Below, one piece after another: positions 5,642 through 34,235 of a DNA stretch of 37,265 nt; position 1 is the first letter of the stretch, and each line of letters starts with the position of its first letter. The position numbers and the translations under genes were made by a program. Under the pieces are notes generated by a model, which was given only the letters and a program-made list of their open reading frames with translations, was not told the DNA's origin and did no database searches. The stretch is from a virus (Duplodnaviria; Heunggongvirae; Uroviricota; Caudoviricetes): the IMG/VR virus record IMGVR_UViG_2731957842_000006; one strand, given 5' to 3'.

Positions 5642-6801
5642 TTATTCAACCTCTTCTAAACTGCTCACTCTGGACCCTCGGCGGAAATTATCATCATTTT
5701 TAACATACTCATATGAATCCAGAATCAAACCAGATATGCGAAGTATATCTTCCGGATTAGTTATATGTATCCTTTTACCATCCGTATCAAGTCGAGCTCG
5801 TCTTATTTCATTCAACTGAACTTCACTAAGCGAAATAGGTAATGTTATAAATGAAGATTTTTTATCATAAAATCTTAACAGCCATCTATTAGTTTTACCA
5901 TTCAATAGTACACCAAAATATGACTCAGTATCTTTATATTCTATATTATCTTCTGTTTGTATGATTTGTTTTACCCTTTCAAATAGTTCCAATTCTTTGG
6001 CTGTGGTTATTATGTTGGGGTTTTCTTCATCAACAATGGCGTTATTAACTTGTGTATCCGTTGCATCATTTTCTTTAGTTTGCTCTACCGGTTGTGTAGA
6101 TAGCCCGGAAACCACCATTGCGCTAACAGCGCGCTCAACGGCCTGTTTAACTAATGGAGTCACGAACTCAAGAAATCTCTGATTAAGTTGTCTCTCAATA
6201 TTTGAACGACTAGCAACATATCGAACAAACTCCAGATCAACTTCACGAAGACTAGAACTGATTGTTTTAGTAAATGAATTCAAATAAACACTTTCTTCAG
6301 CCAGTGTCCGTAAAGCCTCTGGTTTGAATTTATCATAACGAAAACGAAATAATTGTGTAATATCGGAGTGAGTTAGAGAATCCATTCTTATTTTTAAAAA
6401 CGGCGTTGAATCCATTATGTTTTTTGTTTCAAATCCGTAAAAAAACGCCATTCAACACCATTTGTAATGGCTGATATAGTAACTTCCGGTGTTGAATTAA
6501 AATATCTTGATAGCTGTGGGCAGTGATTATCAATTTGTTCTGAAAACGATTTCGCCTCAATGAACATCACAGGAACATCATGACAAAATAAAGCGTAATC
6601 AACCCGTTCATTAGCCTTAACCCCGGGGAAGTCAGCACTATACTCAGCTTTGACTTTTCTTGGATCATACGGAGTAAAACCAAGAATATCTAGTAATGGC
6701 ATAATGAGTGCTTGTTTTGTCGTTTCTTCAGTTGTACAAAACACCCCCATTTTTGCAACATGCTCTGTGTGTATTTTTAACTTATTTGCAAAATTTTCCA
6801 T
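5642..6801 (-). CDS. HsdR-N-like PD-(D/E)xK nuclease-domain protein with about 265-aa uncharacterised C-terminal region; reading frame broken at a homopolymer (ORFs 6415..6801 and 5642..6451)
   Basis: N-terminal 128 aa carry the restriction-endonuclease-like pattern (PLLDILGF ... VDYALF ... VMFIEAKS ... QLSRYF ... ITNGVEWRFF); GGAGGAG Shine-Dalgarno 8 nt before the ATG at 6801; frame changes at A7 6439-6445 (one extra base would fuse both ORFs); roughly 33-35 percent GC by eye versus about 50 percent in flanks. Confidence 0.5.
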
Positions 6802-6829
6802 GCTTGTCTCCTCCATGGTAACAATATGT

Positions 6830-6859
6830 ATTTTGCAAATCCGAAATAATATATGTCAA
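6830..6859 (-). promoter_or_regulatory. sigma70-like promoter of the inserted nuclease-domain gene
   Basis: Minus strand TTGACA (6854-6859), 18-bp spacer, CAAAAT (6830-6835), about 30 nt upstream of the ATG. Confidence 0.35.
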
Positions 6860-6950
6860 TATGCTCCAGCTTAGAAAATTACTCGCCCCCCTAAAATATC
6901 TCTCTACAGCACTCCAAACCAAGGTAAAAGTTTTATCATAAAACTGTGAT

Positions 6951-7298
6951 TCATACCGGCACCTGCGTCCGGTAACTGGTCCCATTAAAAAACACAACAT
7001 CGATGTTATAGGTGGGGTTATCTGCTCCATCTACCTTTGAAATTGCCAGTGATGCAAAATACCCAGCAAACTGTTGCTGAACCATGTTCACATAGTAGTC
7101 TGGGTAAATCTGCTGCACGATGCACTGCTGTGCAGGAATACCGTAATTCGCGTAAAACGGCGACTCCCCCAATCCCAGCTTTAACGTCTGAATGAGCGTC
7201 GTCAGCCAGCCGTAGGAGAAATCACCGTTGGCGTCAGATTCTACTGCAACCCATTTTTTGTTGCCGTTCGCGTCGGTGACGCGGCCCCATGTTCTCAT
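6951..7298 (-). CDS. putative baseplate component (115 aa)
   Basis: ORF in the baseplate block between the spike-like gene and the J-like gene; family not assignable by eye. Confidence 0.4.
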   Translation of the reverse strand: MRTWGRVTDANGNKKWVAVESDANGDFSYGWLTTLIQTLKLGLGESPFYANYGIPAQQCIVQQIYPDYYVNMVQQQFAGYFASLAISKVDGADNPTYNIDVVFFNGTSYRTQVPV

Positions 7299-7498
7299 CG
7301 TGCCCCCATCACTTTAACTAACTCTGTCAGTACTGGTGAAAAGGCAAATGCTAAAGCTACGAGTGCAGCGGTGTAATACATGCGTCGTAAGGTATTGCTT
7401 TTTGCCACTAATTTTAAGGCTTTCACAATCCAGTCTCCTCCGCTAAAATTAATCACGGAAGACCTCCAAACATACGTAATCATCCCTTGCGTATTCAA
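7295..7498 (-). CDS. small hypothetical protein (67 aa or shorter), hydrophobic C-terminal half
   Basis: ORF whose stop overlaps the downstream start; weak support only. Confidence 0.25.
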   Translation of the reverse strand: MNTQGMITYVWRSSVINFSGGDWIVKALKLVAKSNTLRRMYYTAALVALAFAFSPVLTELVKVMGAR

Positions 7499-7511
7499 GG
7501 TGAGAAACAGA

Positions 7512-7539
7512 ACCCCCCGACTGGGCCAACAGTCGGGGG
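7512..7539. terminator. strong GC hairpin (11-bp stem CCCCCCGACTG / CAGTCGGGGGG, 6-nt loop) inside the baseplate operon
   Basis: Perfect inverted repeat followed by T-rich sequence on both strands, between the 7581..8294 and 7295..7498 ORFs. Confidence 0.3.
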
Positions 7540-7580
7540 GTTCGTTTTATGGTTAGAATTTAAAGTGAAATGAACCGGTA

Positions 7581-8294
7581 TTAACCAGGATTTGGTTTCT
7601 TCGACGTAATCGTGCTGCTGCCGCTTTGAACACCAGTCACATCGTGGCTGTGGCCGCTGACGCTCACGCCGTTGATAACTGCATCCATCTCGACATTAAG
7701 AGGACCAATCAGCGAAGCGGTTGTATCCTTCATCTGGGCTTTGTCCTGGACGATCGGTCCGTTGAGGTGAATTTTCCCGTTCAGGAAAATATCTTCGGCC
7801 TCGAGGTAAACAGCTTTCGACTTTTGCCTGATTTCTTCCAGAGCCACCATTACCGAGCTACTGCCGTCCTCTGTTTTGAGGATCGCGCCATCCGGACCGT
7901 ACAAAACGATTTTTTGCGGATCTTCGTCGGACCACTCCTTGTTTGCCAGTGGCACGAAAAACAGGGGAGTGAGCGACATCGAGTAAGAAAGCGTTGCCAT
8001 ACCGGTTCCCAATCCGGACACACCGCGCAGTGATACATCAGCGGCAATTGTTACTCCTCGATCGCCCGGCTGTATCGGGTAACGGATATACGGGAATGTG
8101 GCGACAGGGATTGTTATCTGCGGGAAGTTGATCCCCTCCGGCAGCATATCAAACTGAACTGTCACTATTTGCCCGCAGATATCGACAACATGGCAGGGCA
8201 ATTCGCGGCCTTTAAGCTCGGCTTGCTGGTTACCAGAACTGGTCATCATCTCCGACAGTGTTCGGAGAAACGGTAATTTTTGAGCGTTTGACAT
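7581..8294 (-). CDS. putative baseplate spike/assembly protein (237 aa)
   Basis: Position in the baseplate block; size compatible with gpV/Mu gp45-like proteins; not verified. Confidence 0.4.
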   Translation of the reverse strand: MSNAQKLPFLRTLSEMMTSSGNQQAELKGRELPCHVVDICGQIVTVQFDMLPEGINFPQITIPVATFPYIRYPIQPGDRGVTIAADVSLRGVSGLGTGMATLSYSMSLTPLFFVPLANKEWSDEDPQKIVLYGPDGAILKTEDGSSSVMVALEEIRQKSKAVYLEAEDIFLNGKIHLNGPIVQDKAQMKDTTASLIGPLNVEMDAVINGVSVSGHSHDVTGVQSGSSTITSKKPNPG

Positions 8295-9301
8295 TACACC
8301 CTCGCCCAGTTCTCAGCATATGCCTCAAATACCGTCACCCAGGCATCGCCATCGGCTGTCAGATACGAACCAATGTGTCTGACTGATTTCACAAGAAATT
8401 TCCCGGTGAACGTGGTCGAATTTTTTGCGATAACGCTGGGTACCGTTGTATTAGCCATCACAATCGACGCAGCGCCAGAATATAGCCCCTCCGGCAGTTT
8501 AACCACATCACCACATCTGATATCGCCTCTCATAGGGCATTTGAAACTGACGGTAAACGGCGCTATCCATGTCGGCTGCCCGACCAGTTCATGGGCATGA
8601 ATTGTTTTTGGCTCACCCCACTTTGCCGATGCGTTATCGTAGATTCGTATTCTGTCGGAAAGAATACTGATGGCGATTCCGCTATACCTTTCATTACGCA
8701 TCATCGCAATAGAGGCGTTTTTTACGACCATAGCCAGCGAACCAATCTCCGTATATTTGCCCGTCCACGGCTCTGGCAAAACCAGGTTGTCGCTGACTGT
8801 GCAATCAATAAGTTTATTGGGATATGCTTTTTGCAAAGCGCGGACTAAAACATCGCCCACCCTTTCCCCTGCTTCCCCCTGCCCCTCAATTGAAAAAGGT
8901 TTACCGTCATCGGTTTTGCGTATGCTTGGATTTATTACCAGGTTTAAAGTCTGGTTCGTGCCGATCCAGTTGGCATAGGCCAGATAAATTTCACCATAGA
9001 TTACCTCCCCCTGTTGATCCTTATTTGCCAGTGGTAACCCCTGAACAAAGCCTGCTTTCATACGTACCAGACAACCCTGCAAACTTACGCTTTGCTTCAG
9101 CATGTCAATTGGTAATCCATAGATCGTCAGCATCGTACCCGAACAGACTACATCCAGGCCGGTTACTTCAAAGTCAAATTCAACATGCAACCCACATCCT
9201 GGTGTTTCATTGGTATCAAAAGGTCCAATGGGTTTTCCATTGCTATCCACTGGCGGCTTGCCTGTTTTAGGATTAATAATTTCCAGTCGGTAATAACGCA
9301 T
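8294..9301 (-). CDS. putative baseplate hub protein (335 aa)
   Basis: Translationally coupled ORF in the baseplate block after the tape measure gene. Confidence 0.4.
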   Translation of the reverse strand: MRYYRLEIINPKTGKPPVDSNGKPIGPFDTNETPGCGLHVEFDFEVTGLDVVCSGTMLTIYGLPIDMLKQSVSLQGCLVRMKAGFVQGLPLANKDQQGEVIYGEIYLAYANWIGTNQTLNLVINPSIRKTDDGKPFSIEGQGEAGERVGDVLVRALQKAYPNKLIDCTVSDNLVLPEPWTGKYTEIGSLAMVVKNASIAMMRNERYSGIAISILSDRIRIYDNASAKWGEPKTIHAHELVGQPTWIAPFTVSFKCPMRGDIRCGDVVKLPEGLYSGAASIVMANTTVPSVIAKNSTTFTGKFLVKSVRHIGSYLTADGDAWVTVFEAYAENWARV

Positions 9302-17117: not shown

Positions 17118-17309
17118 TTATGCGTATTCCCGGCGTTTGTCCGGCGACTCCTCCACCAGCTCCTGCCATGTCGCGGTAAATTCACGTCGCCACTGGTAAA
17201 ACGTGGTTTTATAGTCATCAGTTATGATGTCCGGGTAATCATTTTTCAGCGACTGATAAAATTCCTCGTTCCAGGCGATGTACTGCACCAGGCGTTCGAA
17301 ATAATCCAT
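17118..17309 (-). CDS. small hypothetical protein (63 aa)
   Basis: ATG overlaps the terminase TGA (TGATG coupling); no similarity to a terminase nuclease domain. Confidence 0.3.
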   Translation of the reverse strand: MDYFERLVQYIAWNEEFYQSLKNDYPDIITDDYKTTFYQWRREFTATWQELVEESPDKRREYA

Positions 17310-18043
17310 CACAGGTTCAATCTGCTGGCGTACACCATCGATAACGCGTCTTTGGACCAGTCCACGAACTCGGCAAGATATTCCTGCTGCCAAACGCGCG
17401 GATCGGATTTCTTCTCCGTTTCCTCCAGTTCTTCTTTCGGAATGTACGGATTCGATGAAGTTGGCGCATGGTGCATGACAAATCCCAGGGATTCATCGTG
17501 GCATATCGCGTAGAAAAAATTGCTCTCGTCGATACCGTTTGGTGTGGAAAATACCCACGCACAGCCACGGTAATCAACAAGCGTCGGGCGTATAGCGCGG
17601 GGCCAGATTTCCTCGAGCATTTCCGGCGATTTAGTGAATGCGGCCTCATCAATCAGCACAGCGTGATATTTACGCCCACGCCCGGCCAGTTTGTTATTGT
17701 CCGTTACCCAAAAGTCGATGCGCCCCCCATTACGGAGAATAATGCGCTTTTCATTTTTTGACTGGCTGAGGATCAGCGGTTGCAGAACGGCGCTAATTTC
17801 ATCCCAGATTTCCTGGTACTGTCGGTATTGTGCGGTAAAAATCCCCACCCTACCCGCGATAAGCTGCCCGGTGGTAGGAACGGCAAATTTCCGCGTCGCG
17901 AAACTGGTAGCGATGTTCACCAGCATCACCGTTTTACCCCAGCGACGACCACAGCATACCGCGTGGAAGCGTTCCTCTATTGCCGCCGTCCATGCAGCTA
18001 TTTGCCCCTCATGAGGTTTTGGGAGGTAGATTTCAATCGACAT
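17309..18043 (-). CDS. terminase large subunit, N-terminal ATPase domain only (244 aa; truncated)
   Basis: Walker A GRRWGKT and Walker B-like VLIDEAAF with STPNG motif; ORF ends after about 244 aa and no nuclease domain, portal or capsid genes follow. Confidence 0.6.
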   Translation of the reverse strand: MSIEIYLPKPHEGQIAAWTAAIEERFHAVCCGRRWGKTVMLVNIATSFATRKFAVPTTGQLIAGRVGIFTAQYRQYQEIWDEISAVLQPLILSQSKNEKRIILRNGGRIDFWVTDNNKLAGRGRKYHAVLIDEAAFTKSPEMLEEIWPRAIRPTLVDYRGCAWVFSTPNGIDESNFFYAICHDESLGFVMHHAPTSSNPYIPKEELEETEKKSDPRVWQQEYLAEFVDWSKDALSMVYASRLNL

Positions 18044-19124
18044 TATCCACTCCCGGCATCGGCAGAGAGTTGTGGATAATTATTTCGTTATTCTCACCAC
18101 CCACACCTTTTTTGAGGTTTTCAATCTCAGTGCGCAGCTTTTCGTTGCGAAGCCTCAGTCCTTCAAGCTCCAGATCATTGCGACTGTCAGTTGCACCACC
18201 AGCAGAACTTCCTTTCGTCGCCGTTATCAGCTTGATAAGTTCGCGCCGGGCGGCAGCCTTATCCTCCAGCAGGATCTCAACGCCGAATTTTCCGAGCTTT
18301 GCCCCTGCATATAATTGCCGCGCATCCCCATCAAGCAGAGCGGTATCAGCCATATAAAGCTGTCCCATTCCCTCACCGCAGCACTTCGGGCAGTCCAGAT
18401 TGGGTATGGCGTTATCAACAAAGCCAAGGCCTCCATATTCCGGCTCGGGTTTGCCATCTCTGGAGGCCTGTGCCGCTGCCTTATCGAATTCTGCAATATC
18501 ACGCCACTGGTAGAGGTGATTCTCGCCCCAGCAATAACGGCAGTTAACACGGCGAAATTGTGCCAACTGATTGGGGTCGGCCTGGACAATGGCCATCAAC
18601 TGACTCACCAGTAAATCCAGGTCTGCGGTATAGCGTTTCTGATACTGATTGCGGAAGTAGCTGATAGCACGATAAACCCTGGCATTTCTAAGCATACGGC
18701 TGGCGTTGCTGTTAGCTGTCGCACCTTGCCCCTCATAACCAGCCAGTCGGTATGCCTCTGTCGGCTTTTTCCCCTGAGCAACAAGCATCGCAAACTTAGC
18801 CTGCTGGTCAGAAATGCCGAATTCATCGGGGCAGAACGAAAATTCCTCCGCGTCGCCCTCATTCAGGCACGCATCGGATACTGGCTTTTTTTTCTGAGAT
18901 TTTCCGTTCCGCTTTTGCGCAGTCTGCGCAGATTTTTTCTGCGCACTTTGTTGCGCAGTTTTGCGCATTTCTGTCTGCGCATTTTTCGGAGGTTTTTTGA
19001 TGTAACGACGGGCTGTTGCGTAATTCAGTCCCCTTGCCTCACACCATGCCACCGGGGATACACCGGAGCGGGTGTATTCAGCAATATATTCCTGCTGCAA
19101 CGCCCCCCAGTCCGGTCTGCTCAT
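18033..19124 (-). CDS. putative terminase small subunit (363 aa; N-terminal HTH, Cys-rich C-terminal region)
   Basis: Directly upstream of and coupled to the terminase ATPase gene; HTH-like segment VSPVAWCEARGLNYATARRYI; CxxC ... CPKCC cysteine cluster. Confidence 0.5.
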   Translation of the reverse strand: MSRPDWGALQQEYIAEYTRSGVSPVAWCEARGLNYATARRYIKKPPKNAQTEMRKTAQQSAQKKSAQTAQKRNGKSQKKKPVSDACLNEGDAEEFSFCPDEFGISDQQAKFAMLVAQGKKPTEAYRLAGYEGQGATANSNASRMLRNARVYRAISYFRNQYQKRYTADLDLLVSQLMAIVQADPNQLAQFRRVNCRYCWGENHLYQWRDIAEFDKAAAQASRDGKPEPEYGGLGFVDNAIPNLDCPKCCGEGMGQLYMADTALLDGDARQLYAGAKLGKFGVEILLEDKAAARRELIKLITATKGSSAGGATDSRNDLELEGLRLRNEKLRTEIENLKKGVGGENNEIIIHNSLPMPGVDNVD

Positions 19125-19127
19125 TAG

Positions 19128-19379
19128 TTAGTCCTGATTTTTATCCACCCTGAGTAGTTCACGCAGGGCAAAGGCATCCCCTTTTCTGGCAAGCTTAAAC
19201 AATGCCGCCCGTAGTTCGGCTTCACCTTTCGCTCTGCCCTTACGGATGGATGCGTAAAAATCTGTCATTGCTTCCCGATTTTCTTTCAGTCGGTTCAGAT
19301 CAACATCCAGAACGTCAGCGATTTGTTGTGCAGTCATCCGGCACGCTGCCAGAGACTCTACTTTCGAATACGGAATCAT
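19128..19379 (-). CDS. small HTH-like protein (83 aa)
   Basis: GGGGGTGA Shine-Dalgarno before the ATG at 19379; helix-turn-helix-like MTAQQIADVLDVD; overlaps the upstream gene end by 65 nt. Confidence 0.35.
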   Translation of the reverse strand: MIPYSKVESLAACRMTAQQIADVLDVDLNRLKENREAMTDFYASIRKGRAKGEAELRAALFKLARKGDAFALRELLRVDKNQD

Positions 19380-20247
19380 TTGTCACCCCCATTGATATGC
19401 AGGGTGTCTTCTTCCTGTATTTTTCGTGAAGGATTTTTACTGCAGCGTTGTTCCAGGTGACCTGATGGTGAATGCGTTTATGGCTGGCACCCATCAGTGA
19501 GATTTTTACGCACGACGGCGCATACATGACGGAGTAAAAACTTTTAACGTAGGTTCCGGAGTCCAGATACAGCTCGGTCATTCCGCCGCTGTTTTTCTGC
19601 GTCTGTTTCTGCCCTAACTGGACAGCACCGATCGTCATAAACAATTCACCACAGCGACCAAGATTCGTATACGTATTCACATCCTCGTTAATGCGCCCCA
19701 TGAATGAGAACGGTCGATCAACGGAACAGATAAAACTGTTCATTGCCTTGCGTTTCACCCACGAAGCATGGCCGCCATTGTCACCAAGAAAATCTCCGCC
19801 CTGCGACATAGCGATGGAAAGCGCAGGTATTGATTCGTAGTACGCCAGCATTTCAGAAAGGATCGCATCCAGTTTTCTTATCGGGAAATAGGCCTGGTCA
19901 TAGTTGCGATCCACCCGAAACTGGAACTCGTGATAATCATCATCGAGCTGAATGAAGTATTTACACCCGACCAGTTTTGCCAGGTCGAAACAGGCATTAC
20001 GGGCGTAAAAAATTGATCGGCGGTCACCGAAATTATCGGCTTCGTCAAAACGACTGGCGATATCGGCTTTGGAAAACACCAGCACCTGTTCACTAAATTC
20101 AGCTATGTAGTGATGCCGTGTATTATCTTCATCATCAACAACGATAAAAATTTTCCCGGTATAGCCAGCACGACGCAACGTCCGGTAAGTCAGAACTTTG
20201 TCCGGTCGCCCGTGAGTCAGAATAAAGGCGCAAAAATCATCACGCAT
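19315..20247 (-). CDS. hypothetical protein (about 310 aa) with DxD-like acidic motifs (IVVDDED, QLDDDYHEF); possible nucleotide-sugar-binding fold
   Basis: Start at 20247 preceded by GGAGGAGGAGGA, which doubles as the Glu-run at the end of the ParB-like gene; function is inference only. Confidence 0.45.
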   Translation of the reverse strand: MRDDFCAFILTHGRPDKVLTYRTLRRAGYTGKIFIVVDDEDNTRHHYIAEFSEQVLVFSKADIASRFDEADNFGDRRSIFYARNACFDLAKLVGCKYFIQLDDDYHEFQFRVDRNYDQAYFPIRKLDAILSEMLAYYESIPALSIAMSQGGDFLGDNGGHASWVKRKAMNSFICSVDRPFSFMGRINEDVNTYTNLGRCGELFMTIGAVQLGQKQTQKNSGGMTELYLDSGTYVKSFYSVMYAPSCVKISLMGASHKRIHHQVTWNNAAVKILHEKYRKKTPCISMGVTNDSVFESRVSGSVPDDCTTNR

Positions 20248-21031
20248 ATTCCTCCTCCTCCCCGCCATGCATGATCTCCACCATACGCTGCGTCATCCGG
20301 ACAAATCCATTTTCAATAGCCTGCTGATAATCAATGATCACCAGCGCCGATTCCTCGAAAAAGCACTGAATTTCAGCGGGGGCGTGAGCGTAATAGTCCG
20401 CAATTCTGCTGAAATTAAACACCGTATGACGTTCTGCCGCACACAGGAGGAATTTCTCAATATCAGGATCAAGGGACGCCGAACGTATCCGGCTGATCAA
20501 CTCCTGAGTTTTCGTATCGTCGTACAGTTCACTGATATCTGGTTTATCGCCCGACGGCTCATAAACAGGCGTATCAATTTTCGTCGTGTACGGTTCCTCC
20601 TCATTTCCTGTACCGGGCAAAACATCCGTCAACAGTTCATCAATTTCTGTCGGGCTGAATCCTGTCAGGGAGATATCAAAATCAGCATTGATTAGGTCCG
20701 ACAGCTCCATCCGTAACAGATCTTCATCCCAGCCAGCATTCATCGGCAGGCGATTATCTGCCAGGCGGTACGCCTTTTTCTGATCATCCGTCAGACCAGA
20801 CAGAACAATAACCGGAACCGAATCCATTTTGAGCGCCTCAGCCGCCATAACGCGACCGTGACCAGCAATAATTTCGCCCTTTTCATCAATCAGCACTGGA
20901 TTAGTCCAGCCGAATTGCTTAATGCTTTCTACCAGTTGTGCCACCTGCTCAGGGCTGTGTGTCCTGGCATTGTGTGCATACGGAGACAGTTCTTGTAACG
21001 GGCGATAGACGATCTTCAATTTCTCGCTCAT
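20240..21031 (-). CDS. ParB-like nuclease-domain protein (263 aa)
   Basis: N-terminal ParB/Srx-like segment (LSPYAHNARTHSPEQVAQLVESIKQFGWTNPVLIDEKGEIIAGHGRVMAA); GAGG Shine-Dalgarno. Confidence 0.7.
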   Translation of the reverse strand: MSEKLKIVYRPLQELSPYAHNARTHSPEQVAQLVESIKQFGWTNPVLIDEKGEIIAGHGRVMAAEALKMDSVPVIVLSGLTDDQKKAYRLADNRLPMNAGWDEDLLRMELSDLINADFDISLTGFSPTEIDELLTDVLPGTGNEEEPYTTKIDTPVYEPSGDKPDISELYDDTKTQELISRIRSASLDPDIEKFLLCAAERHTVFNFSRIADYYAHAPAEIQCFFEESALVIIDYQQAIENGFVRMTQRMVEIMHGGEEEEYA

Positions 21032-21435: not shown

Positions 21436-21617
21436 TCAGTTCTGCATACACTGCCGAACACCATCAATAAGCTGACAGACCTGAGACGCGGTATCGAAAA
21501 GCTGGCGCGCCTTATCCAGGCTAACGCATCCCACCAATAAAAAAGGCACCAGTATCGCTACCAGTGCCCATTTCGCCGCTGTTCGCGGCGTTCTGTGTGT
21601 CCAGTGTTTTCTGCTCA
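21436..21617 (-). CDS. small lipoprotein (60 aa), o-spanin-like position after the endolysin
   Basis: Start at internal ATG 21617; signal-peptide-like N-terminus with lipobox LVGC (MSRKHWTHRTPRTAAKWALVAILVPFLLVGC); no cognate i-spanin ORF seen. Confidence 0.4.
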
Positions 21618-21632
21618 TAACACACCTGGTTA

Positions 21633-22016
21633 TCAGCGTTTCAACTGAAAGTGAGGTCCGTCTTTCAGTGTTTTCCAGTCCCCGCCCCATTCGATGGCAG
21701 TTCCCAGCTCTGCGGCAGCCTGCTTAAATGCCTGCGCGATTTTCTCGTACAGAGGCCAGTCCCATGACACCTGGCTACCAATGTAGGCAACAACATCCAC
21801 CGCATCACCTGTCAGGTGGCGGCTGTTCATGGTCTGGCTCTTGCCTTCTGCAACCAGCTGTTTCTGGCGATACTTACTGCGCAGGCCTTCCGTAATACCG
21901 AAATCAACCTCCGTCAGCTCCAGCGCACGGCGAACGACAGCAACCAGCTGTGGTTTGACGCCCTCCAGATTTTTTTCACTGCGACGGCTGAATCTGAATT
22001 TACCCGACATATTCAC
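21633..22016 (-). CDS. endolysin, peptidase M15-like (L-alanyl-D-glutamate peptidase type)
   Basis: 127-aa ORF with SRHLTGDAVDV and DGPHFQL motifs; last gene of a holin-membrane protein-endolysin arrangement. Confidence 0.7.
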   Translation of the reverse strand: MNMSGKFRFSRRSEKNLEGVKPQLVAVVRRALELTEVDFGITEGLRSKYRQKQLVAEGKSQTMNSRHLTGDAVDVVAYIGSQVSWDWPLYEKIAQAFKQAAAELGTAIEWGGDWKTLKDGPHFQLKR

Positions 22017-22288
22017 CTCAACAATGGAAAGATTTTTGTGACGTTCCCGCGTGCGCGTATTACCAGCACACAGAACAACAGATTAAAAAACACTTCCAGC
22101 CAGCCCATTGCTAACGGACGACCACACAGATAGCTGAGTGGCGCAAAGGCATAAAGCAGCATCAACAGCCAGGCCAGCCATGACATCAGCGGTTTATGTC
22201 TGGAATCACGACGACGGTAAAAAAAGAGCGTCAGTACGATAACCGTGCATAACGCCACATTCAGCAATCCGGGAAGGTTACCTGACAT
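22013..22288 (-). CDS. small membrane protein in the lysis cassette (about 91 aa)
   Basis: Start MSGNLPG with GGAGGAGG Shine-Dalgarno; two or three hydrophobic helices; coupled to the endolysin start. Confidence 0.4.
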   Translation of the reverse strand: MSGNLPGLLNVALCTVIVLTLFFYRRRDSRHKPLMSWLAWLLMLLYAFAPLSYLCGRPLAMGWLEVFFNLLFCVLVIRARGNVTKIFPLLR

Positions 22289-22672
22289 TGCCGCCTCCTC
22301 CATCCCGCAGGCGGGAGAACAGGCCGGATACCAGTGATGCAATATCCTGCTGGTGGATGAACGACAGAATCTTCACCGAAATCACCGATACCAGTACCGC
22401 GCAAAGCGCGTCGAGAGATGTGCTGTGTAGCCCCAGTTTTTCGACCAGATAAGACGCCATGACATCCGCCCCCAGCACGCCAACGATAAACGACACCAGA
22501 AAATGCGCCGCCACACGCCAGACAGAAATCTGCTGGGGTATCGTCGCCACAAACAACGCCCCGGCGAATGCACCAAACACAATCCCGAAATCCGTTCCGG
22601 TAAACAGTCCAAATACCGTCGCCCCACCGAGCGCCGCAGCCGTACCGGAACCGGATAAGGGTTCAGACATGC
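22278..22672 (-). CDS. putative holin (about 131 aa)
   Basis: Start MSEPLSG at 22672 with GGAGG Shine-Dalgarno; multiple Gly-rich transmembrane segments; first gene of the lysis cassette. Confidence 0.55.
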
Positions 22673-22689
22673 TTTTTCCTCCCACAAAT

Positions 22690-22718
22690 AAAAAAGGGCC
22701 GCCAGCGGCCCGTAAAAA
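22690..22718 (-). terminator. terminator-like hairpin (GGGCCG-CCAG-CGGCCC followed by T6 on the minus strand) just upstream of the holin
   Basis: GC stem with U-tract about 20 nt upstream of the holin start. Confidence 0.35.
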
Positions 22719-22794
22719 CACCCTGTCAAAGGCACCCGCAGATGCCTTTTGTGTGGTGTTATCTGATGTGATGTGCGCCGGGCGTGGCGCGGAT

Positions 22795-23112: not shown

Positions 23113-23187
<75 letters not shown>

Positions 23188-24491: not shown

Positions 24492-24568
24492 TGGTCCGCC
24501 ACCGAGGACTCGAACCTCGCACAATCAACTTAGAAGGTTGATGCTCTATCCCGATGAGCTAGTGGCGG
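24492..24568 (-). tRNA. tRNA-Arg (anticodon UCU, reads AGA)
   Basis: Hand-folded 77-nt cloverleaf: acceptor CCGCCAC/GTGGCGG, anticodon arm TCAAC-CTTCTAA-GTTGA, T-arm CGAGG-TTCGAGT-CCTCG, encoded CCA. Confidence 0.85.
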
Positions 24569-24570
24569 AA

Positions 24571-24646
24571 TGGTGGCCCTTGCTGGATTTGAACCAGCGA
24601 CCTGGCGATTATGAGTCGCTCGCTCTCACCACTGAGCTAAAGGGCC
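24571..24646 (-). tRNA. tRNA with CAU anticodon, Ile2 (lysidine-type, reads AUA)-like; could alternatively be Met
   Basis: 76-nt cloverleaf GGCCCTT ... anticodon loop CTCATAA ... T-arm GCTGG-TTCAAAT-CCAGC ... AAGGGCC-A-CCA; resembles ileX-type tRNAs; 2 nt from the tRNA-Arg. Confidence 0.8.
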
Positions 24647-30322: not shown

Positions 30323-31111
30323 TTACCCCCTGAAGCCTGGCGGGATCGCACTGTCCGGCAACGAGACGGTGTTAACCTGTCGGAGCAACGTCTCAGGCCG
30401 AACACCTTTCGGCGCGAACAGGCCCTGGTATTCATTGGCGATGCTGTGTCGAATCACCTGCTCAGGTGTAAACCCCTGCTGACGGAATTTTTCCAGTTCC
30501 CGTATCGCCCCGTTAGCGCCCTGCTCCGTTCGAATCGGTTTTCGCAATGCCTGTCTGAACCGGACCCACTCATGCCAGAGTGTTTCCGGCAACCAATCGG
30601 GCAGCTCAATAGCCTCCGGCTCGAATTTTTTAGACGCTCGTTTTTGGCGAGGGGGATTTAGGGGGAGATCAGTATTTAGATCTTCCTCTTCCTCTTCCTC
30701 TGGTAGCGCTTTTTGATCCGTTTGTGTAACGCCGGCAGCGTTACCTTTTCGTTTCAGTTCACGTATTTTTGTAACTCGCTCGTTTGTAACCGCCCGTTTT
30801 TTAGAGCTTTTTCCGTTATGGCGTTCAAAGTTAGGTAGAGAAAGCCCAACGTCATTTTCGACCAGCCATCCAACCTGAATTAACGCATCAGCAAAACCAG
30901 CCATAAAAGTGATGCGATCTATTGCACTTTTTGTAACGCCGCGAGCGTTACAATCTGCATTACCGTCTATCATTTGTTGATCCGCCCATGCCCAGAAGCG
31001 AATAACCTTCCCTAATGCGGCATCTGGATCAATATTCAGAATCTCAGCAAGCCTGAATATTTCCGGCTTATCCGGCGTAATAACCTCGAGCTTTATCCAG
31101 TTTGAAGCCAT
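30323..31111 (-). CDS. replication initiation protein, lambda O / DnaT-like position (262 aa)
   Basis: AAGGTGA Shine-Dalgarno; acidic linker (EEEEEED); immediately upstream of the DnaC-like gene as in lambdoid replication modules. Confidence 0.55.
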   Translation of the reverse strand: MASNWIKLEVITPDKPEIFRLAEILNIDPDAALGKVIRFWAWADQQMIDGNADCNARGVTKSAIDRITFMAGFADALIQVGWLVENDVGLSLPNFERHNGKSSKKRAVTNERVTKIRELKRKGNAAGVTQTDQKALPEEEEEEDLNTDLPLNPPRQKRASKKFEPEAIELPDWLPETLWHEWVRFRQALRKPIRTEQGANGAIRELEKFRQQGFTPEQVIRHSIANEYQGLFAPKGVRPETLLRQVNTVSLPDSAIPPGFRG

Positions 31112-31188
31112 TTGTTTTCACCTTGTAACGCTCGCAGCGTTACATTTAACTGATACCGAACAAAACAATCCGGCACGATTAATTTCAA

Positions 31189-31611
31189 TCAATGCACTAC
31201 GACAGAATCACCGGGCGACCCACCACCGCTGAAATGTGCTTTCCGGTAAACGGCCTGGACTGCATCATCATGCGCATCAATTGCCGTACTCAACGCTTCC
31301 TGCGCCGCCAGTAATGCACGGCGTTCCAGGGTATCGAAGATGCAGAGTCGGTGACGCAGCTCGCGCGGAAGAATTGCCAGAACCGCAGGGATCAGTGTCT
31401 GAATTTTTTCCCTTTGCGCTTTCGTTTCACCTTTTAACCAACGGTGATAGATGTTCTGCTGATTATTCCAGTCCTTGCCTGGTACCAGGGGCAATTCGCC
31501 GCCCCCCTGGCGCAGATATTCTTCAGTAATTGCATTGGCTACCCATGCCTGCCCTTTTTCAGCGGCCAGGGCTAACAGCACTGATTCGATGTGCTCATGC
31601 CTGATTTTCAT
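31189..31611 (-). CDS. YdaT-like / CII-position regulatory protein (140 aa)
   Basis: AGGAG Shine-Dalgarno; sits between the Cro-like and replication genes as Rac ydaT does; size matches. Confidence 0.5.
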   Translation of the reverse strand: MKIRHEHIESVLLALAAEKGQAWVANAITEEYLRQGGGELPLVPGKDWNNQQNIYHRWLKGETKAQREKIQTLIPAVLAILPRELRHRLCIFDTLERRALLAAQEALSTAIDAHDDAVQAVYRKAHFSGGGSPGDSVVVH

Positions 31612-31870
31612 GAATCAACTCCTGTGCATTTTGTGTGTTAGCCTTACATCCAACAGGTAAACCATCGGTCGGATTCGGGTAGATATCAGGCCGGAGTTCA
31701 TGAGGTGTAACCTCGAAATTCGTAGCCTCTGCGATACGCAATACCTTTTCAGGGCTTAACTGACTACGTCCAGTAGCAACGAGGCTAATCATTGATTGCG
31801 AACAACCAGCCAGCGCGGCCAAACAAGACTGTCGTACACGATTTTTTTTCAAATATTCATCTAATGTCAT
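31595..31870 (-). CDS. Cro-like HTH regulator (about 91 aa)
   Basis: ATG at 31870 with AAGGTGA Shine-Dalgarno (track ORF begins at an upstream TTG); HTH segment QSCLAALAGCSQSMISLVATGRSQ; divergent from the repressor gene. Confidence 0.55.
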   Translation of the reverse strand: MTLDEYLKKNRVRQSCLAALAGCSQSMISLVATGRSQLSPEKVLRIAEATNFEVTPHELRPDIYPNPTDGLPVGCKANTQNAQELIHENQA

Positions 31871-31974
31871 AAGGGTCACCTTAGTAATGTTCGCCAAAAT
31901 ATTAACTATACTAATTTAAATGATCAATACTTATATCAGTTTGAGATTATGAGCTGTGTTCATAAGATGGTGGT
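31871..31974. promoter_or_regulatory. immunity-region divergent promoter/operator interval between the Cro-like and repressor genes
   Basis: About 100-bp AT-rich intergenic region between divergently transcribed HTH regulator genes. Confidence 0.35.
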
Positions 31975-32438
31975 ATGAGAAGAAAACGCGAAGAAATCGC
32001 ATCGCCAGAAGCTACGCAGCGTCTACGCGGAATCTGGGATGCAAAAAAAGAGAGCTCAAATTGACTCAGGAGCTTGCTGCCGAGCTAATGGGCTTTGAGA
32101 CGCAATCTACGGTTAGCCACTATCTCAACGGAAAGGCTCCACTTAACACTGATGCGGCATTAAAATTCGCAGTATTGCTAAGAGTTAAGCCTGAAGACTT
32201 GAGGCCTGATTTAGCTGATCTGATGAATTACGTCCGTTCCTCTGGAACTTATGACGAAAGTTTCGAAGGCGAAGGGTGGCGGATGGTTAACAAGCAACAA
32301 GCTGATTTACTGGATCTTTTTGATATCCTCCCCGAATCAGAAAAAGCAAAACTAATCGAAAGGCTTAAAGGCCAGAATGAACTCTACAAAGAAGCGTTTG
32401 AAAATATGCTGGCAGCTCAGAAACGCATAAAGAAATAG
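31956..32438 (+). CDS. racR: CI/RacR-like HTH repressor (about 155-160 aa); N-terminus ambiguous
   Basis: HTH region LKLTQELAAELMGFETQSTVSHYLNG; main frame has no ATG before the HTH (track start is a GTG at 31956); an ATG at 31975 opens a second frame (MRRKREEIASPEATQRLRGIWDAKK) that joins the main frame if A7 at 32043-32049 were A8. Confidence 0.55.
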   Translation: MFIRWWYEKKTRRNRIARSYAASTRNLGCKKRELKLTQELAAELMGFETQSTVSHYLNGKAPLNTDAALKFAVLLRVKPEDLRPDLADLMNYVRSSGTYDESFEGEGWRMVNKQQADLLDLFDILPESEKAKLIERLKGQNELYKEAFENMLAAQKRIKK

Positions 32439-32455
32439 CCCCCACTACCTCGTAA

Positions 32456-32485
32456 CTAAACCGCCATCCCTGGCGGTTTTTTTGT
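32456..32485 (+). terminator. intrinsic terminator after the repressor gene (AAACCGCC-ATCCCTG-GCGGTTT followed by T-run)
   Basis: Stem-loop plus U-tract 20 nt downstream of the stop. Confidence 0.5.
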
Positions 32486-32674
32486 CCCCTGCGCCCCCAT
32501 CGCCTTACTTTTTTATCAAAAAAAACACTAAAATTTTCATTAGGATAGTACATTTTTATCAACAAAATGCATATTTATGTTGATCATCAATATGAATATA
32601 ACTAATATTATTGCAGAAGCAGCACGGCGCTGTAGGTTTTAGTTCCGCCACCCGGCGTTAAGGGGAGAGATAAG

Positions 32675-32809
32675 ATGGTGCATTACGAAGTAGTTCAGTA
32701 TTTGATGGATTGTTGCGGTATCACTTACAACCAGGCTGTGCAGGCTTTACGCAGCAACGACTGGGATCTCTGGCAGGCAGAAGCCTCTATCCGCAACAAC
32801 AAAATGTGA
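32675..32809 (+). CDS. small protein (44 aa), Rac ydaG-position
   Basis: AGGGGAGAGA Shine-Dalgarno; MVHYEVVQYLMDCCGITYNQAVQALRSNDWDLWQAEASIRNNKM; not in ORF track (short). Confidence 0.45.
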   Translation: MVHYEVVQYLMDCCGITYNQAVQALRSNDWDLWQAEASIRNNKM

Positions 32810-32819
32810 GGTGCGAAAA

Positions 32820-32972
32820 ATGCAAAAAATCGACCTCGGCAATAACGAATCCCTGGGGTGCGGCGTGTTCCCCAACCAGGATGGAACGTTCACTGCCATG
32901 ACTTATACCAAAAGCAAGACATTCAAAACTGAAACGGGCGCACGTCGCTGGCTTGCCAGAAATACTTGCTAA
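32820..32972 (+). CDS. small protein (50 aa), Rac ydaF-position
   Basis: Manual translation MQKIDLGNNESLGCGVFPNQDGTFTAMTYTKSKTFKTETGARRWLARNTC; follows the previous small ORF by 10 nt. Confidence 0.45.
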   Translation: MQKIDLGNNESLGCGVFPNQDGTFTAMTYTKSKTFKTETGARRWLARNTC

Positions 32973-33392
32973 TCCATTATTTGGATTAATTCAATATTCT
33001 CGCTGTAGGGGTATAGCAGAAACCACCAAAGCCCGGAGGTGGTGAAATAAAACCGGGCACAACACGAAGTCGCATTTCCGATATCCATAAAGAGTCGGTC
33101 TTGTCTGTTAAATTTAAATGGTGGGAGTGCGCCTCCGGTTGTGGATAACAACACTGCTGTGTGTAGTCTTGGCGGCATCAGTTTTTTCTTGAAGTTCGAC
33201 TGATGTCCGCCCTTTTTAAAGTGAATTTTGTGATGCGGTGAATGCGGCTAAGCGCACGCGGCACAGTTAAAAGTCATGTTAGTCCTTATTGGTTTGGGTG
33301 GGAAAGCCGACTGTAATTGTTAACTGGTTGCAGTCACCTGGAGGCACTAGGCACCGCATCAACAAAGTTCATTTGTAAAAATGGAGATAATT

Positions 33393-33614
33393 ATGATTGC
33401 ACATCACTTCGGAACTGATGAAATACCACGTCAGTGTGTGACTCCTGGTGACTATATTCTTCATGAAGGCCGGACATATATTGCCTCGGCAAACAATATT
33501 AAAAAGCGAAAACTTTATATTCGTAACCTGACTACAAAAACATGCATTACTGACTGCATGATTAAAGTCTTCCTCGGTCGTGATGGTTTACCTGTAAAGG
33601 CGGAGTCATGGTGA
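33393..33614 (+). CDS. kilR: KilR-like small protein (73 aa)
   Basis: GGAGA Shine-Dalgarno before the ATG at 33393 ([10 protein letters not shown]...); size and order (followed by 56-aa and 91-aa genes then recE) match the Rac early-left operon. Confidence 0.5.
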
Positions 33615-33784
33615 TGACTAAGAAAATAAAATGTGCTTACCACCTTTGCAATAAAGAAATTGAAGAAAGCAAAAGTATTAAAAGACCACTTCATTTCATG
33701 CGTGGAGTTATCCCAACGACGGAAATGAAAAAATATTGTAGTGAAAGTTGTGCCGAAAAAGACCAGATGGCACACGAACTTTAA
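33614..33784 (+). CDS. small Cys-rich zinc-binding-like protein (56 aa), Rac ydaE-position
   Basis: TGATG overlap with the upstream stop; cysteine pairs CAYHLC and CSESC. Confidence 0.45.
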   Translation: MTKKIKCAYHLCNKEIEESKSIKRPLHFMRGVIPTTEMKKYCSESCAEKDQMAHEL

Positions 33785-33858
33785 TTAACTGACTATTCGA
33801 AACTGAATTTATGCCAGCAATGGCAGGGATTCGCTCAACCTTAATTAAGGAGAAAAAC

Positions 33859-34134
33859 ATGATTACCAATTATGAAGCCACTGTTGTAACTACCGATGAC
33901 ATTGTTCACGAGGTTAATCTGGAAGGAAAGCGTATTGGCTACGTGATTAAAACAGAAAATAAAGAAACCCCATTCACTGTGGTTGATATCGACGGTCCAT
34001 CAGGCAACGTAAAAACACTTGATGAAGGTGTCACAAAAATGTGCCTGGTTCACATCGGAAAGAATCTGCCCGCAGAAAAAAAAGCCGGATTTCTGGCAAC
34101 TCTGATTGCAATGAAATTAGGCGGTGAAATCTGA
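33859..34134 (+). CDS. racC: RacC-like protein (91 aa)
   Basis: AAGGAGA Shine-Dalgarno before the ATG at 33859; immediately upstream of the RecE-family gene. Confidence 0.5.
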   Translation: MITNYEATVVTTDDIVHEVNLEGKRIGYVIKTENKETPFTVVDIDGPSGNVKTLDEGVTKMCLVHIGKNLPAEKKAGFLATLIAMKLGGEI

Positions 34135-34235
34135 AAGAAATAGCCTGCGCCATACGCAGGCTATGAACAGTGTGTATCCGGCAAGATCATTCACTGAACA
34201 AAACGAATTTTAATCTGAGTTGAGGTTAAAAAACA

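Follow-up and report, generated by a model that had tools for sequence, protein, structure and literature searches.

The stretch of DNA analyzed here, called the window throughout, is the 37,265-nucleotide (nt) IMG/VR virus record IMGVR_UViG_2731957842_000006 (Caudoviricetes). It is a lambdoid prophage at the Rac locus of Escherichia coli, and Escherichia coli VG48B2 (NZ_CP128584.1) carries a prophage that is at least 99.97% identical to it over all aligned stretches. The order of genes on the minus strand is tRNAs, two holins, an M15 endolysin, a small lipoprotein-like open reading frame (ORF), a ParB-like gene, a gene for a protein of 310 amino acids (aa), a small gene, the terminase small subunit, a truncated terminase large subunit, and tail genes. 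Our subject is the ParB-like gene and the 310-aa gene, which we assign to the late operon because they lie between the lysis and packaging genes. A first-pass annotation had read them as a ParB-like nuclease-domain protein paired with a protein carrying DxD motifs. We find that they are one instance of a very widespread two-gene cassette, in which a glycosyltransferase (GT) is accompanied by the C-terminal module of a ParB-like protein. The features of the pair are as follows.

20240..21031, minus strand: ParB/Srx-like protein, putative adaptor, 263 aa (PF02195, phrog_620, AlphaFold2, Foldseek)
20555..20590, minus strand: linear motif Y148-T-T-K-I-D-T-P-V-Y-E-P159 in the disordered linker of that protein, consensus YTxK[IV]xxPxYEP (alignments)
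20243..20521, minus strand: C-terminal "GT-partner" domain, about residues 171-263 (alignments, profile searches)
20240..20263, minus strand: coupling junction, with the Glu-codon run GGGGAGGAGGAGG as Shine-Dalgarno sequence
19315..20247, minus strand: GT-A glycosyltransferase of the TAGT family, 310 aa (PF20691, phrog_842, AlphaFold2 with Foldseek)
20125-20136, minus strand: second acidic cluster of the GT, D38-D39-E-D41 (alignments)
19936..19944, minus strand: D102-D103-D104 of LDDDY, a DxD-type motif of the GT with predicted metal and nucleotide-sugar binding (alignments)

The 263-aa gene (20240-21031) is followed by an ORF at 19315-20268, within which the 310-aa reading starts from an ATG at 20247-20245. 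The TGA stop codon of the ParB-like gene lies at 20242-20240, giving an overlap of 8 nt (ATGCGTGA). The junction reads CAT GGC GGG GAG GAG GAG GAA TAT GCG TGA, with the ATG within TATGCG. The stretch GGGGAGGAGGAGG provides the Gly-Glu-Glu-Glu codons of the ParB tail, and the GGAGG repeats of the Glu codons stand 3 and 6 nt upstream of the GT-gene ATG. The coupling is as the first-pass annotation described it, with the Glu-codon run at the end of the ParB-like gene (GGAGGAGGAGG) serving as the Shine-Dalgarno sequence of the partner. Products of 310-312 aa are annotated by RefSeq at the same place in relatives. Both genes are real, with thousands of homologues, and for both the ratio dN/dS is 0.07-0.15 in those co-linear E. 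coli allele pairs that allowed a gap-free comparison, indicating purifying selection. The span first given to the pair, 19128-21031, does contain it; the coordinate 19128, however, belongs to a separate gene of 69 or 83 aa and not to the 310-aa protein. This third small gene inside the span had been overlooked, as had the part of the "ParB" protein that is linked to the GT (see below).

Sequence profiles and a predicted structure place the 310-aa protein among the GT-A glycosyltransferases, in the TAGT family. It matches PF20691 (TAGT, "TET-associated glycosyltransferase") across profile positions 4-205 of 205 with an E-value of 1.1e-33 (117.3 bits against a cutoff of 27.5) and phrog_842 at 1.3e-101, and PF20691 is present in all of the GT homologues listed. 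These homologues are ~285 aa long; the last ~22 aa of the window protein are an enterobacterial extension that overlaps the next gene. RefSeq names the orthologues "GREB1-related protein." The AlphaFold2 model has a pLDDT of ~90 over residues 1-150 and low confidence in the C-terminal third. When it was searched with Foldseek, matches included SpsA at 8e-6 as well as glycogenin, TarP, and SunS, and the best matches in BFVD, a library of viral structures, were TAGT proteins at 3e-20. A search of PDB sequences with the GT profile returned no match. The protein is near neutral in charge.

The acidic DxD-like motifs that the first-pass annotation had pointed out (D38-D39-x-D41 and L101-D-D-D-Y105) proved to be invariant across homologues. 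In an alignment of homologues down to 60% identity, DDxD (residues 38-41), LDDDY (101-105), NEDV (187-190), and HH (260-261) do not vary, and DDDY, NED, and HH are at least 90% conserved in 47 pairs drawn from many phyla. The same annotation had seen no methylase motifs in this protein and had allowed that it might turn out to be a DNA methyltransferase or a structural protein. No match of either kind was found in Pfam, NCBIfam, PHROGs, or PADLOC; the profile and structure searches lead instead to a DxD-type GT-A enzyme.

What is known of this family provides a substrate precedent. TAGT includes the T2/T6 beta-glucosyl-HMC-alpha-glucosyltransferase, related phage GT-A enzymes put sugars on 5-hydroxymethylcytosine (5hmC) in DNA, and the family is structurally related to the trypanosome base-J glucosyltransferase. 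Known TAGT-type enzymes transfer sugar onto 5hmC, 5-hydroxymethyluracil (5hmU), or an already attached glucose. The GT-A DNA glycosyltransferases of phage C5-MT/TET clusters share a motif set R...DDD...ED (bioRxiv 10.1101/2023.12.21.572611), and the window GT has this set together with the same Pfam family, the same PHROG, and the GT-A fold.

The 263-aa protein has an isoelectric point (pI) of 4.45 and a net charge of about -26. Based on AlphaFold2 secondary structure and pLDDT, its N-terminal half would consist of an NTP-binding-type ParB domain (residues ~1-100) and a helix-helix segment (~103-134), and its C-terminal half of a disordered acidic linker (~136-170) and then a helical C-terminal domain (~172-254). 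The ParB-like domain claimed for it was recovered by profile (PF02195 at 1.3e-6, 28.8 bits against a cutoff of 26.3; phrog_620 at 1.7e-90) and by Foldseek, which returned ParB, Noc, and KorB at 2e-6 and also Srx (sulfiredoxin) and SerK. Box II, GxxR, is present as G57-H-G-R60. Nothing in the analysis supports the "nuclease" activity implied by the original label. Nor is this a canonical partition ParB, with which it shares the N-domain and box II. The full-length ParB model TIGR00180 reached 37 bits, below its cutoff of 58, and covered the N-domain part only; no helix-turn-helix (HTH) family matched the protein, so that the central parS-binding HTH of canonical ParB was not found; and there is no ParA-type ATPase among the window ORFs.

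Residues ~3-144 of the protein (~140 residues) match phrog_498 at 9e-52 and the N terminus of the PADLOC model MTase_II (PDLC03229) at 1e-38, which bears out the remark in the first-pass annotation that ParB-like proteins next to terminase genes are often partnered with DNA methyltransferases: the N-domain is the same module that is fused to these enzymes elsewhere. Only the ParB-type part of phrog_498 and PDLC03229 is covered, and no methyltransferase family matched either protein of the pair. The ParB-N6/N4 DNA methyltransferase fusions therefore share with the window protein a homologous ParB N-domain and helix-helix linker. They differ from it in that their effector is covalently fused and acts on canonical bases, whereas in the window the effector is a separate GT, linked through a distinct C-terminal module.

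That module deserves particular attention, because it is in its C-terminal third, and not in the ParB domain, that the "ParB" protein is best conserved among 47 diverse pairs. The helical domain has the consensus FLxxAAxRHxxFxF..IAxYYAH..Q.LME.SALVIID..AIxNG, and in the linear motif that precedes it P155 and Y157 are invariant across 20 diverse partners. Profile searches with the module gave no significant match in Pfam or PDB sequences, the best being a sub-threshold "Phage_Gene47," and the AlphaFold2 model of the region was not confident enough for its fold to be searched. Vibrio jumbo phages have, upstream of the GT, a gene for the C-terminal module only (139 aa, E-value 3e-44, profile positions 136-249). 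Module-only partner genes also occur in three other loci (L101, L142, and L144), and twice in tandem in a fourth (L129), where two consecutive pairs of module-only gene and TAGT gene lie at 6460-8906 beside DNA polymerase A (PolA) and a GIY-YIG endonuclease. That each GT in L129 has its own copy of the partner suggests cognate pairing, and possibly a two-sugar modification. In four of the five module-only lineages the pair lies beside a helicase, PolA, a beta clamp, or DUF1376. On the sequence evidence, then, what consistently accompanies the GT is the C-terminal module of the ParB protein and not its ParB N-domain.

It should be noted that in VG48B2 the ParB-like gene (ynaK; L002/L004) is labeled by RefSeq as a pseudogene "missing C-terminus," with the first 86 codons only. 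The DNA is identical to that of the intact 263-codon window ORF, and we set the label aside as an annotation artifact, which it appears to be because the K-12 YnaK reference is truncated.

Loci were collected from IMG/VR, GTDB genomes, metagenomes, and GenBank phages, and ~150 of them have a GT match. In nearly every one with enough upstream sequence, the same ParB family lies directly upstream of the GT, and in almost all loci other than the window the two genes overlap by 4-41 nt (taking the longest ORFs). The GT family comprises about 1,500 clusters at 50% identity (690 at an E-value of 1e-30 or below). Bacterial hosts are Proteobacteria, Bacteroidota, Firmicutes, Chlorobi, Spirochaetes, Verrucomicrobia, and Saccharibacteria; on the archaeal side, halovirus HHTV-2 and a Methanosphaera metagenome-assembled genome carry the pair. 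Sequence distances of partner and GT are correlated (Pearson r = 0.55). Of 5,426 complete E. coli genomes, 889 carry the pair at 80% completeness or more, and remnants (ynaK) are found in many others.

Terminase genes usually follow the pair, as the first-pass annotation had reported for the window, where the small subunit (18033-19124) and the large subunit (17309-18043) lie downstream. The terminases belong to unrelated families (Terminase_2/6N in the window, Terminase_4/TerL_ATPase elsewhere), and the cassette is at the head of the packaging module across these unrelated types. In Lactobacillus phage c5, the pair is ORF1 and ORF2, directly after the cos site. Recurrent neighbors on the upstream side are PAPS-reductase-like proteins (four loci), N6/N4 DNA methylases (three), and pairs of Prok-E2_D and ThiF (three); other DNA- or protein-modification modules thus tend to gather at the place that the cassette occupies in these phages.

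Gene fusions offer a further view of the cassette. A domain of the S-adenosylmethionine (SAM)-methyltransferase type is fused to the GT in P0249/P0252 (L157, 7001-8755), and in L117 (189-1736) a SAM-methyltransferase is fused to ParB plus its C-terminal domain (CTD). A methyltransferase that may sit on either the GT or the ParB protein is the pattern expected of components of one complex. Other variants join the TAGT domain to a sulfotransferase (P0287; L159, 3418-5190), to a second TAGT domain, or to an N-terminal P-loop domain (GxxxxGKS) without a Pfam match (P0265/P0294/P0297). The order ParB, GT, terminase is kept in those fusion variants whose contigs reach far enough. Direct fusion of ParB to GT, of the "Rosetta stone" kind, was also sought: the long TAGT proteins turned out to be TAGT-TAGT, TAGT with SAM-methyltransferase, TAGT with sulfotransferase, or P-loop with TAGT, and a lone possible CTD-GT fusion (P0081), on a single short contig, may be a frameshift artifact. 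Together, the module-only partners and the tailoring fusions suggest a single complex whose product is a stable glycan, tailored in some cases.

One candidate for the carrier of the glycan is a small molecule or host component, such as a nucleotide, a signaling molecule, or an envelope polymer, with a role in counter-defense or superinfection exclusion. GT-A enzymes of prophages are able to act on surface polymers of the host (one structural match is TarP), the fold is shared with nucleotidyltransferases (ADP-glucose pyrophosphorylase and IspD are among the matches), ParB/Srx folds include phosphotransferases acting on small molecules or proteins (SerK, sulfiredoxin), and some relatives carry the N-terminal P-loop domain just described. 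The distribution argues otherwise, given that the cassette is kept in viruses of Gram-negative bacteria, Gram-positive bacteria, and archaea, whose envelopes differ, and that its place is in the late/packaging operon and not at a locus of lysogenic conversion. In addition, no signal peptide or membrane segment is evident in the alignments, and no PADLOC defense-system model matched the GT. We consider a target of this kind quite improbable.

The nearest parallel studied by experiment is the class of ParB-dependent thymine dioxygenases of phages (5mYOX176/ParB176; O'Toole et al., PNAS 2026), in which ParB176 activates its cognate enzyme on double-stranded DNA (PMC13229309). A ParB of this type has no DNA-binding domain; its nucleotide-binding domain is followed by a helix-helix segment, and a long disordered linker leads on to the CTD. 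Its gene adjoins that of a post-replicative DNA-modifying enzyme, which specifically needs it, and is often near terminase genes (PMC13229309). The layout predicted by AlphaFold2 for the window protein, with a disordered linker of ~35-50 aa, fits this published description. The difference is that the partner in the window is a glycosyltransferase, with no dioxygenase present, and activation by the window ParB would be by analogy.

Our preferred reading, to which we give a probability of roughly 45%, is that the cassette encodes a late-expressed adaptor or activator and a DNA glycosyltransferase that acts on replicated phage DNA before packaging. The two proteins would work as a complex, in which the ParB-like protein would use its C-terminal module to bind the cognate GT and activate it. 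The ParB N-domain, as an NTP-binding switch, would couple the GT to double-stranded phage DNA that has been replicated and is about to be packaged or is being packaged, and the GT would move sugar from a nucleotide-sugar onto that DNA. In some relatives the sugar might be tailored further by the fused methyl-, sulfo-, or second glycosyl-transferases. The presumed result is packaged DNA that is protected from host nucleases. We infer the complex, the DNA target, and the protective role: the activator role is proposed by analogy with the ParB-dependent thymine dioxygenases, and DNA is favored as the target because of the known substrates of the family, the homology of the ParB module to those fused to DNA methylases, the DNA-related neighbors throughout, and the need for an acceptor that is common to bacterial and archaeal viruses.

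Several observations weigh against this. No DNA-binding domain is recognizable in the ParB-like protein, which is strongly acidic (family-wide pI 4.4), and only 70-90% of partners keep the arginine of box II. GREB1, a eukaryotic relative, glycosylates a protein (PMC7968844). We found no literature report of modified DNA in phages that carry the cassette. Most importantly, neither the window nor the matching prophage encodes an enzyme that makes 5hmC or 5hmU (TET/JBP, or a dCMP or dUMP hydroxymethylase) or a DNA methyltransferase. The other 54 window ORFs match only 18 Pfam families, with no oxygenase, thymidylate-synthase-like enzyme, or DNA methylase among them, and the RefSeq annotation of the VG48B2 prophage includes no acceptor-making enzyme. 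The same is true of the annotation of the complete phage c5 genome (31.8 kb). Among 143 neighbor ORFs of 170-450 aa upstream of the pair in diverse loci, no TET/JBP or hydroxymethylase family was matched by two or more ORFs (only the commonest families were listed, so a single match could be hidden). We accordingly dropped the idea of a hidden oxygenase or hydroxymethylase, having seen none in the window ORFs, the neighbor ORFs, or the prophage and phage c5 annotations. With no enzyme present to make them, the only acceptors known for the TAGT family are missing.

This is also where the cassette departs from known TAGT systems. In those, the genome itself supplies 5hmC, 5hmU, or glucosyl-5hmC by means of a hydroxymethylase or TET/JBP enzyme, whereas the window clade is without both and has, in addition, an obligate ParB-CTD partner. 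The DNA-modification function raised by the first-pass annotation is favored in that the TAGT family is known to glycosylate DNA, and it has to be worded conditionally because the prophage has no enzyme that makes the usual hydroxymethyl-pyrimidine acceptor. A more specific version of our reading would dispense with hydroxymethyl-pyrimidine altogether: the pair would put sugar directly onto a canonical base, the backbone, or a DNA end, with the ParB-like partner opening or marking phage double-stranded DNA before packaging. We regard this version as improbable.

The absence of an oxygenase could, alternatively, mean that the pair is the inert relic of a longer ParB-dioxygenase-glycosyltransferase hypermodification pathway from which the oxygenase has been lost. 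ParB, TET/JBP-type dioxygenases, glycosyltransferases, and terminases do co-occur in metavirome contigs (PMC13229309), and the window prophage is itself decaying, its terminase large subunit being truncated. A relic would nonetheless be hard to reconcile with the fact that the oxygenase-free two-gene form is the rule across ~150 loci in several phyla, including complete genomes of viable phages. Strong purifying selection on both genes, invariant catalytic motifs, and the abundance of the pair (the cluster and E. coli counts given above) speak the same way, and we find this explanation hardly credible.

The main rival to a DNA target is that the GT modifies a protein, and we judge it unlikely on balance. 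The acceptor could be another conserved phage or host protein; in the most economical form it would be the partner's invariant, tyrosine-bearing YTxKIxxPxYEP motif in the disordered acidic linker. There are two precedents: glycogenin glucosylates its own tyrosine, and GREB1, a large cytoplasmic animal protein that carries a glycosyltransferase domain related to the window GT and is the source of its RefSeq name, O-GlcNAcylates ER-alpha (PMC7968844). GREB1 differs in having no ParB partner and is relevant only as a precedent for a protein acceptor. The motif and CTD of the partner are more conserved than its ParB domain and are kept where that domain is absent, which a protein acceptor would explain, as it would the lack of any enzyme that forms a DNA acceptor. 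The GT-A structural matches include glycogenin and glycosyltransferases that act on proteins (S- and O-linked); those to glycogenin, however, are no better than those to many other GT-A enzymes. The fused sugar-tailoring domains fit a stable glycan on any carrier. Any acceptor must be common to phages of bacteria and archaea with unrelated terminases and capsids, which leaves DNA or the co-inherited partner. Between these two, DNA has the advantage that the characterized phage members of TAGT act on it, and that the partner has the N-domain that DNA dioxygenases use and that occurs in fusion with DNA methyltransferases. Moreover, the neighbors are always DNA-transaction genes (terminase, helicase, polymerase, clamp) and never capsid or tail genes, and Thr149 of the motif is not invariant, being T, S, or A.

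The remaining features around the pair concern the state of this particular prophage.

21436..22721, minus strand: lysis cassette of two holins, M15 endolysin, and small lipoprotein-like ORF, directly upstream of the pair and in the same orientation
19128..19379, minus strand: small basic protein, 83 aa from the ATG at 19379 (phrog_309 at 1.7e-22)
18033..19124, minus strand: terminase small subunit, 363 aa (PF03592 at 9e-9, phrog_51 at 3e-71)
17309..18043, minus strand: terminase large subunit, N-terminal ATPase part only, 244 aa (PF03237, phrog_2)

The small basic gene, given by RefSeq as 69 aa from 19337 (WP_000126789.1), overlaps the 3' end of the GT gene and is similar to an internal piece of some terminase small subunits. 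The terminase small subunit itself is unusually long. At its N terminus is an HTH similar to the IS66 TnpA accessory protein (a sub-threshold NCBIfam match), and the Terminase_2 domain is preceded by a low-complexity stretch rich in lysine and glutamine.

Compared with VG48B2, the window has a 1606-bp deletion, an extra stretch of 4.2 kb, and five single-base differences (four indels in homopolymer runs and one substitution). The deletion junction is at 17336-17343, with a short repeat, and the ORFs concerned are those at 17309-18043 and 17118-17393. Through the deletion the terminase large subunit loses its C-terminal half, and the adjacent portal gene its start. With its terminase large subunit truncated, the prophage should be unable to package DNA, and the ParB-GT cassette, intact in the window, is there probably a passenger. 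The gene at the portal position (L003, 2749-4185; L002, 4128-5312), mostly deleted in the window, is named "anti-CBASS protein Acb1 family protein" by PGAP. The related phage vB_EcoS-683R6 has a DUF4055 (portal-type) protein at this position. The name Acb1 could be a misnomer, or it could stem from a fused domain.

Among the baseplate genes is one with an HSDR_N domain, the N-terminal domain of the type I restriction enzyme R subunit (window 5642-6816, minus strand). It is a single gene of 386 aa in VG48B2 and is split into ORFs of 269 aa and 133 aa in the window owing to a 1-nt difference in a T run at ~6425. The extra 4.2-kb stretch (30474-34657, absent from VG48B2) carries the immunity and early region, with repressor-like genes of the HTH_3/HTH_31 type. 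YdaS/YdaT-like matches and replication matches (DnaA-type/IstB-type ATPase) probably belong to this stretch or its flanks, and recE of VG48B2 is truncated where the stretch is missing. Three tRNA genes lie upstream of the lysis genes on the minus strand (23115-23187, 24492-24568, and 24571-24646). The prophage tRNAs are Gly-TCC, Arg-TCT, and one with a CAT anticodon, which is called Met by ARAGORN and Ile in the RefSeq annotation of the matching genome.

The folds and families of both proteins are already known, and ParB near DNA-modification or terminase genes has been discussed before. Iyer and colleagues are said to have defined TAGT in 2013 and to have proposed targeting by ParB. In the literature covered, to which Iyer et al. 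2013 (which may mention a ParB-TAGT linkage) does not belong, we found no description of the oxygenase-free two-gene cassette as a unit, of its very wide distribution, or of the C-terminal module of ParB as an obligate GT partner. "Solitary" TAGTs have been noted as unexplained in 288 of 753 phage genomes (PMC13216743), and ~65% of GT contigs were reported to be without a 5mYOX or ThyS neighbor (10.1101/2023.12.21.572611).

What the present analysis adds is that a large clade of these "solitary" TAGTs is not solitary: about 690 to 1,500 clusters have a dedicated partner in the C-terminal module and a fixed place at the head of the packaging operon, so that a vague annotation becomes a defined, testable two-protein system. 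If its target is DNA, the acceptor or the chemistry would be one not yet described for DNA glycosylation, and GTs would be the second enzyme class, after the T-dioxygenases, to use a ParB-type activator. If the sugar goes on DNA that has no hydroxymethyl-pyrimidine, this would be a new post-replicative chemistry, present in about one-sixth of E. coli genomes as well as in bacterial and archaeal viruses. Should the partner protein be the target, the cassette would be a new phage protein-glycosylation system. Either way, it bears on how prophage DNA behaves toward restriction, CRISPR, and nanopore basecalling.

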